DNA of 40,000 bases from an uncultured Candidatus Nitrosopumilus sp. (GTDB taxonomy: Archaea > Thermoproteota > Nitrososphaeria > Nitrososphaerales > Nitrosopumilaceae), in assembly GCA_951812645.1 (NCBI GenBank), contig CATOSM010000001.1, positions 63,560 through 103,559 on the forward strand. The letters are read 5' to 3'. Position numbers and translations under genes: made by a program. The notes under the pieces were generated by a model, which did no database searches, was not told where the DNA came from, and saw nothing but the letters and a program-made list of their open reading frames with translations. This document shows, piece by piece, positions 28,201 to 31,200 of the stretch; positions within the stretch are counted from its first letter, which is position 1; each line of letters opens with the position of its first letter.

Positions 28201-31200
28201 GAAGCCTCCATAAGTAGCTTCCTACTTGTTGACTCAACTTTTATTTCCGTAACGAAAAAGTTACGGCCCCATTGAAGCAGTGGAGTAGACATGGCAAACG
28301 AGTACGAGGTACAGCATTTCCGTAACGAAAAAGTTACGGCCCCATTGAAGCGGCTTTTGCCTCGTACCTCTTCCTCAAATCGGTGTCGGAATTTCCGTAA
28401 CGAAAAAGTTACGGCCCCATTGAAGCACATTATCTGCAATATGACGAATTGACGCGTGCCGGATTTCCGTAACGAAAAAGTTACGGCCCCATTGAAGCTC
28501 CGAAACAAAAATAAGATTGGGAAAATCAATAATCATTTCCGTAACGAAAAAGTTACGGCCCCATTGAAGCGACGATGTCTCTTTTTTGGAAGCAAGGGCA
28601 AACAGGGATTTCCGTAACGAAAAAGTTACGGCCCCATTGAAGCGTTCTGTCTGTAGGTAGGTCATTCTCGTATACCTGATTTCCGTAACGAAAAAGTTAC
28701 GGCCCCATTGAAGCCCAACGAGATACAGGAGTGGCTGATGATGTATGACGAGCAATTTCCGTAACGAAAAAGTTACGGCCCCATTGAAGCACGGCATACG
28801 TTATCGCGTTGCTTGCGGGGGACAGTGCATTTCCGTAACGAAAAAGTTACGGCCCCATTGAAGCACTTCCCTGTGCACTGCTGTTACCTTTTTGCGGTCC
28901 CAATTTCCGTAACGAAAAAGTTACGGCCCCATTGAAGCAAAAATGACATTGGCTGCCCTGTTTGTTCTTTAAAATTTCCGTAACGAAAAAGTTACGGCCC
29001 CATTGAAGCTTTGGAAACTTTGAGCAGGCCGGAACCCCGTTTGAGAATTTCCGTAACGAAAAAGTTACGGCCCCATTGAAGCGTAACTGAATTTCGTGGC
29101 TCGCTTTTCTTCCCTAAGGATTTCCGTAACGAAAAAGTTACGGCCCCATTGAAGCTAAGATAGGATTTGTGCCGGCACCCATTCCGACAATTTCATTTCC
29201 GTAACGAAAAAGTTACGGCCCCATTGAAGCTTCTATCCATTTTGTAGACATACACTATATTCACTAATTTCCGTAACGAAAAAGTTACGGCCCCATTGAA
29301 GCTAACAGTTCTTGTTTCCTGCGTTCATACGCCATCTCTATATTTCCGTAACGAAAAAGTTACGGCCCCATTGAAGCCAGACGACGCACTTTCATCCCGT
29401 CAAAAGGATGTCGCTATTTCCGTAACGAAAAAGTTACGGCCCCATTGAAGCCCGTCAATCCTGCAGATCTCTGCGATTGTACCTTCTTCTAATTTCCGTA
29501 ACGAAAAAGTTACGGCCCCATTGAAGCTCGTAACTTTTGGTGGCACTTGCACTGTCGAAACTTAGTGATTTCCGTAACGAAAAAGTTACGGCCCCATTGA
29601 AGCTTCCATAAAACCATCTTTCATTCCAAGCATTAATGGGATAATTTCCGTAACGAAAAAGTTACGGCCCCATTGAAGCGTTGGACGCTGTACTGTCCTG
29701 TTTTCGATTGCATTATTTCCGTAACGAAAAAGTTACGGCCCCATTGAAGCATGATAACGATGAGGGGCATCAAGAGCATACAGTTGGTTGAGGACACAAA
29801 TTTCCGTAACGAAAAAGTTACGGCCCCATTGAAGCTAGTGGCGTGCAGGGGAACATCGGTCTGTTGATGTCGGGATTTCCGTAACGAAAAAGTTACGGCC
29901 CCATTGAAGCTTCAAAAAAGAAACAAGGTTACAACTGGTGGGGTGGAGATTTCCGTAACGAAAAAGTTACGGCCCCATTGAAGCAGTTGAACACATAGTT
30001 CTTCAATCCACTTTGTTGACATATTTCCGTAACGAAAAAGTTACGGCCCCATTGAAGCGTCCCATTGTTGAGCGGAAGTCTCAGCAGCAATTTTGTTATT
30101 TCCGTAACGAAAAAGTTACGGCCCCATTGAAGCCATCACGAACATTCGACACGAATCAGAATATAGAGAAATTTCCGTAACGAAAAAGTTACGGCCCCAT
30201 TGAAGCATATAATAACACTCGTCATAGTCAATCATGTCGTATATTTCCGTAACGAAAAAGTTACGGCCCCATTGAAGCTATGACAGTCCCGAAAACTATC
30301 GGGATTACCGAATGCATTTCCGTAACGAAAAAGTTACGGCCCCATTGAAGCATTTTGACCCAAGTGGCTATCTTGACTACGAGGTACGCAGATTTCCGTA
30401 ACGAAAAAGTTACGGCCCCATTGAAGCAGCGAATACCAACTCGACGACGACCAAATCGAAAAATTTCCGTAACGAAAAAGTTACGGCCCCATTGAAGCGT
30501 GTTGATTTTTCCCACGTCAGTTTCCTGCCCGTCATAATTTCCGTAACGAAAAAGTTACGGCCCCATTGAAGCACAGAGCGAAGATAGGTTGGAGAACTAC
30601 ATATAGCAAATTTCCGTAACGAAAAAGTTACGGCCCCATTGAAGCTTTTTCTTCGGGAGTCATGATTTTTAAAAAAATAAAATTTCCGTAACGAAAAAGT
30701 TACGGCCCCATTGAAGCGTACATACAGTACCGCCGTAACCGTCATGGAATGATCATTTCCGTAACGAAAAAGTTACGGCCCCATTGAAGCTAGTCGCGTA
30801 GGACGCTTCATGAATATGTTGTATGCCTATTTCCGTAACGAAAAAGTTACGGCCCCATTGAAGCTCGATGTCGGTGCCGTGTTTCAGTTTCAGTTTCTTT
30901 ACCGAATTTCCGTAACGAAAAAGTTACGGCCCCATTGAAGCCGAACCTCCGTGATTCCGGTCGGACCGAATATCCTTAATTTCCGTAACGAAAAAGTTAC
31001 GGCCCCATTGAAGCTCCTACGTGTCTCTCGGTGAGGTACAGGTTGCACCAATTTCCGTAACGAAAAAGTTACGGCCCCATTGAAGCATGTGCATCACTCT
31101 GCAGGTATGTCTGATACGCCTGATTTCCGTAACGAAAAAGTTACGGCCCCATTGAAGCTCCGGCGTCGACATGGCAAACGAGTACGAGGTACAGATTTCC

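Follow-up and report, generated by a model that had tools for sequence, protein, structure and literature searches.

Two spacers of a Nitrosopumilus type I-G CRISPR array encode one peptide and probably derive from diverged invader strains

In the type I-C array of Legionella pneumophila, overlapping spacer pairs are directed against the element LME-1 (Rao et al. 2016, PMC5071653). The older spacer of such a pair is compromised in its PAM or seed, and the pairs were read as escape followed by primed re-acquisition. The type I-G (I-U) system of Geobacter sulfurreducens is another close counterpart (Almendros et al. 2019, PMC6547450; effector, PMC9638904), and its tested PAM is TTN (PMC6547450). 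In type I-U, one mismatch at position +1 abolishes interference and primes, and primed uptake tracks PAM density (PMC6547450). The type I-G effector flips out each sixth base (PMC9638904). In acid-mine viruses, mosaic and recombining populations evade spacers (Andersson and Banfield 2008, reviewed in PMC2704941), and mismatched spacers were explained by the standing diversity of related viruses rather than by fresh point mutation. Sponge-associated Nitrosopumilus carry large type I arrays, with 158 spacers matching ten viral OTUs (PMC11410982; see also PMC6697440).

The pair described here, spacers 42 and 81 of a Nitrosopumilus array, resembles the LME-1 pairs in that two spacers of one array fall on overlapping stretches of one element and the older is compromised in its seed: spacer 81 is mismatched to the newer variant at +1, +2 and +3. 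For LME-1, the target was available and transformation was used to test escape (in an I-F strain), whereas our analysis works from spacers alone. The system here is an archaeal type I-G, the two spacers start at the identical base, and their alleles differ by a switch between serine codon sets. With the Geobacter system the locus shares cas4g/1g, cas2, cas3g, cas8g, csb1 and csb2, spacers mostly of 35–41 nt and a TTN PAM, obtained here from spacer overlaps. It differs in its archaeal host, in having the effector genes across the array, behind a UvrD-nuclease gene, and in an IS5 between cas8g and csb1. As in the acid-mine populations, standing diversity would account for the mismatches, but here the invader diversity is known from spacers and not from viral reads. 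The sponge-associated Nitrosopumilus likewise have long type I arrays directed against several viruses. The pair is another example of the type of record known from LME-1 and introduces no new mechanism.

The type I-G locus and its array

The window, the whole stretch of DNA analysed, covers 40,000 nt of the genome of an ammonia-oxidising archaeon, a Nitrosopumilus (G000:C1:63560-103559). Its EF-1alpha clusters with proteins whose named members are Nitrosopumilus or Nitrososphaerota. By analogy with the literature on similar genomes, a sponge habitat is plausible (PMC6697440, PMC11410982). The fused cas4g/cas1g and cas2 precede the array, and cas3g, cas8g, csb1 and csb2 lie further on (Table 1). 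The last three genes and the IS5 are downstream of cas3g, outside the window (locus L009). Cas3g, Cas8g, Csb1 (Cas7g) and Csb2 (Cas5/6) match TIGR02621, TIGR04113, TIGR02570 and TIGR02165, respectively, all over the cut-off, and the type I-G gene set is complete here. The I-G cas genes are full length, yet the IS5 sits between cas8g and csb1. This IS5 and a partial second csb2, which follows the full csb2, are found at L009:6254-7013 and 10925-11638.

Table 1. Features of the type I-G locus in window coordinates.
Feature	Position	Strand	Details
cas4g/cas1g fusion (adaptation, PAM selection)	23079..24758	+	NF049935, 712 bits (cut-off 560)
cas2	24721..25056	+	PF09827, TIGR01573
Leader	25057..25233	+	75% identity over 77 nt to the array leader of relative G291
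Type I-G CRISPR array	25234..35497	+	140 identical 36-nt repeats, 139 spacers
Spacer 42	28279..28315	+	37 nt; newer capture; codons 1-3 AGT GGA GTA
Spacer 81	31159..31194	+	36 nt; older capture; codons 1-3 TCC GGC GTC
cas3g start	39666..40000	+	Gene runs on past the window end

The left flank of the array is conserved in the relative G291, and degenerate terminal repeats are present at the right end of the array in relatives. This places the leader at the left end and makes spacer 42 more recent than spacer 81. Two spacers of the array are over-long (29751-29799, 49 nt; 35328-35387, 60 nt). Relatives also have solitary I-G repeats distant from the main array (L146, L147, L157, L158), and a two-repeat mini-array occurs in G353.

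Two further arrays are located near C1:1.75 Mb, bordered by two type I-B-like gene sets. They stand head to head (G000:C1:1749998-1761854), with repeats of 37 and 30 nt, and each has its own adjacent gene set. These arrays and the I-G array have targets in common, and the three together contain about 300 spacers.

Some spacers match the genome that carries them. Spacer 60 (29604-29643) matches G000:C2:109107-109146 over 40 of 40 bases, in a conserved core gene whose sequence was recognised by eye as Mrp/ApbC-like. The 5' flank of this match is AAC, not TTN; the spacer itself starts with TTC, as if its PAM had escaped trimming. With contamination at 8.8%, contig C2 may also belong to a co-binned strain. 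Spacers 89 and 91 (31745-31780, 31892-31929) and spacer 12 of the second array partially match G000:C1:1682458-1683521 (L002, approximately 12460-13520). This endonuclease/methyltransferase-like cassette adjoins a transposase-like gene and is present on the genome's own chromosome and in G419. The three spacers are probably aimed at a mobile restriction-modification-like element.

Spacers 42 and 81 and a third capture of the same site

The original prediction described two nearly identical spacers that differ at five positions within their first 9 nt and encode one peptide. Both were found where it had placed them, as nos. 42 and 81 of the 139, each bounded by perfect 36-nt repeats. They are identical at 31 of 36 bases in the same register, with mismatches at positions 1, 2, 3, 6 and 9. 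Aligned locally, they score 28, and no pair in three shuffled spacer sets scored above 13. In frame 1, both yield the identical 12 residues, and the differences are synonymous. If each change has to fall inside a whole codon, the probability that five random substitutions leave the peptide unaltered in at least one frame is 0.004 with placement anywhere and 0.0004 with placement in the first 9 nt; it rises to 0.012–0.023 once partial end codons are unconstrained.

Spacer 9 of the second array (G000:C1:1750624-1750658) overlaps this site on the opposite strand. It has 14 consecutive bases in common with spacer 81 (positions 3–16 of spacer 81), and the spacer-81 allele is therefore independently attested. 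Spacer 9 adds six upstream codons to the open frame (D-K-E-F-G-F) and closes a rival plus frame with a stop. Its allele reads AAC GGC GTC. Codon 1 thus differs in all three captures, being AGT, TCC and, in spacer 9, AAC (Asn), and the third allele shows that the residue is variable. The sequences support the claim that the array holds two captures of one protein-coding stretch, made from diverged invader lineages: the third spacer lengthens the open frame, and differences across the arrays are mostly silent, as described below.

Directly before the common start, spacer 9 has TTT, an in-frame Phe codon, in the place where the I-G TTN PAM belongs. This third allele is the one in which the flank is observed, and the alleles of spacers 42 and 81 would be expected to have it too. 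For the I-G array as a whole, 9 of 12 5' flanks, read from overlapping partner spacers and not from targets, start with TT (TTC or TTT; p 2e-8). This PAM agrees with the TTN tested for type I-U/I-G. Spacer overlaps in the I-B arrays give mostly CCN. All Phe codons begin with TT, and this PAM is therefore not losable by silent change. The common start and the wobble on spacer bases 3, 6 and 9 would follow from a PAM that is an in-frame Phe codon with a fixed TT. Wobble at these positions is seen in 7 of 11 I-G pairs, a weak signal from a hand count (p 0.04). Such phasing would be expected if the PAM TT falls on conserved codon positions.

Related spacer pairs and the search for the target

There are approximately 16 related spacer pairs inside the I-G array and approximately 33 across the three arrays. 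For 25 pairs, each read in its best frame, silent codon differences number 65 and replacements 23, against means of 37 and 60 under a null of random change with the same frame choice; the observed value was never reached in 1000 draws. The invaders thus appear to be a diverse population under purifying selection. Silent differences are expected in such a population and are therefore, taken alone, no evidence of escape. Four spacers on both strands (25343-25382, 25933-25968, 26445-26484, 28715-28754) together cover an unbroken run of 25 codons in one invader gene, with at least three alleles. Spacers 113 and 130 (33495-33531, 34743-34779) are exact duplicates with different neighbours. This identical pair shows that repeat capture or duplication is possible without any mismatch.

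In type I systems, the PAM-proximal bases count most. For 19 pairs that share a register without being identical, drawn from this genome and from relatives, mismatch positions were compared with a null that preserves mismatch spacing and the detection filter. The mean mismatch position is 12.1 against 16.5 under the null (p 0.0012; p 0.005 without the 42/81 pair), three statistics having been tried and the spacer pairs not being fully independent. Pairs with a seed mismatch are marginally in excess (14 of 19 against 9.9 expected, p 0.035; 13 of 18, p 0.056). Where the two spacers are offset, the PAM or seed of the older one is broken in the newer variant in four of five pairs. These observations lend moderate support to the view that variants evading an existing spacer are those that are re-sampled.

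The target of spacers 42 and 81 was not found in the viral contigs searched with exact and degenerate patterns. Two matches there were discarded as chance: one to an unrelated tailed-phage contig, antisense to a tail gene, and the other to a levivirus-like contig. The target was likewise absent from the metagenome contigs searched, from 400 family genomes and from phage and plasmid records, and no provirus carrying it is present in the genome itself. A peptide search of five relatives was empty, a search of the composite peptide against 5.8 billion proteins did not find the target, and none of 1357 spacers of relatives matches the 42/81 site. One match of six residues, in a different frame (L160), was dismissed, since it lies within the shuffled null and its frame is stopped in the third spacer. 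The conserved flanking PAM, proposed as a check on the original prediction, was recovered as TTN from spacer overlaps; the protospacers were not located in the databases searched. A few spacers of G291 match the same peptides as other spacers of the I-G array, and related invaders thus attack related hosts. Three spacers in the I-B-like arrays tile a P-loop motif (G-G-G-K-S-T), which suggests an ATPase of an invader.

Origin of the differences between the two spacers

The invader is probably a virus. In our assessment, the two spacers are probably independent captures of one protospacer from diverged, immunity-filtered invader strains, with a seed-mismatched variant re-captured at a codon-fixed PAM. 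Cas4-Cas1/Cas2 would have taken the same protospacer twice, each time from one protein-coding gene but in different, diverged members of a single invader population. Trimming by Cas4 to the TTN PAM would give the identical start base. The PAM would persist across strains as an in-frame Phe codon whose TT cannot be changed silently. The strain differences would have built up in the usual way under purifying selection, and recombination may have reassorted them. The variant captured as spacer 42, mismatched to the older spacer 81 at +1, +2 and +3, would probably not have been cleared and may have been sampled again, either naively or by priming.

Alternatively, a conserved PAM could have led to the sampling of two diverged strains at one position, without immunity to the first having played any part. 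The 5' clustering would then reflect codon degeneracy, which in this stretch is highest for Ser, Gly and Val. Indeed, the probability of the clustering within the 42/81 pair moves from 3e-4 to 0.03 once codon degeneracy is considered. Of 41 non-identical within-array pairs, 20 share their start, more than fall in any other overlap class, and both primed and naive uptake track PAM density (PMC6547450). However, the 5' skew persists in the 18 other pairs, and the older spacers are PAM- or seed-broken in most offset pairs. We therefore regard such neutral re-sampling as unlikely.

The original prediction had read the pair as a footprint of escape by synonymous mutation followed by re-acquisition. 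Some observations fit this reading: the +1 to +3 mismatches lie at positions that matter for escape, and the protein sequence is the same. The prediction had not noticed that the changes are in the PAM-proximal seed, that spacer 81 was captured before spacer 42, or that PAM-proximal skew is general. What is not supported is that the differences arose by synonymous mutation, as new silent changes in a lineage that spacer 81 targeted. The codons AGT and TCC are in separate serine codon sets, with no silent single-step path between them. A double change or non-silent intermediates would be required. Five changes are present where a single +1 change is sufficient (PMC6547450), the AAC GGC GTC allele makes codon 1 variable, and other pairs carry up to 10 differences spread along the spacer. 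Strict synonymous escape is therefore improbable. Standing divergence, in strains already diverged or recombined, that was filtered by immunity fits better.

It is very improbable that the gene lies on the opposite strand, or that the ATG is a start codon behind a GGAG ribosome site. In the antisense frame, which has the same wobble positions, the two spacers also agree at all 11 whole codons, a point that the original prediction did not raise, and with the third spacer included there is one replacement in each frame. Amino-acid composition, however, prefers frame 1 by approximately 6–8 bits for two spacers and 8–12 bits with the third added, the range depending on the training set. GGAG immediately precedes the ATG in spacer 42, but the other two alleles lack it and the open frame continues upstream past the ATG, and the start-codon reading was rejected. 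Duplication of a spacer within the array followed by mutation, for which block duplications in relatives (G274) offer a parallel, and assembly error are scarcely credible and were rejected, given the different neighbours, the lengths of 37 and 36 nt, the 140 error-free repeats, the codon-phased changes and a spacer-81 allele common to an independent array.

Immunity-filtered capture from diverged strains would place the pair under an established principle, that seed or PAM variants get through and are then re-captured; the pair adds an example of it, not a mechanism. It is a natural record of repeated immunisation against a diverse Nitrosopumilus invader. The TTN PAM of an archaeal I-G system was obtained here without a target genome, and the spacer-encoded peptides are tags for finding the missing viruses. 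A bolder idea, which we put forward tentatively and with more doubt than confidence, is that CRISPR pressure pushes the codon beside a codon-locked PAM through AGT, TCC and AAC, including the switch of serine codon set. Spacer pairs alone would then yield a measurable, seed-biased selection signal on the still unsequenced viruses of marine ammonia-oxidising archaea, and PAMs pinned on Phe/Leu or Lys/Asn codons would be re-targetable sites.
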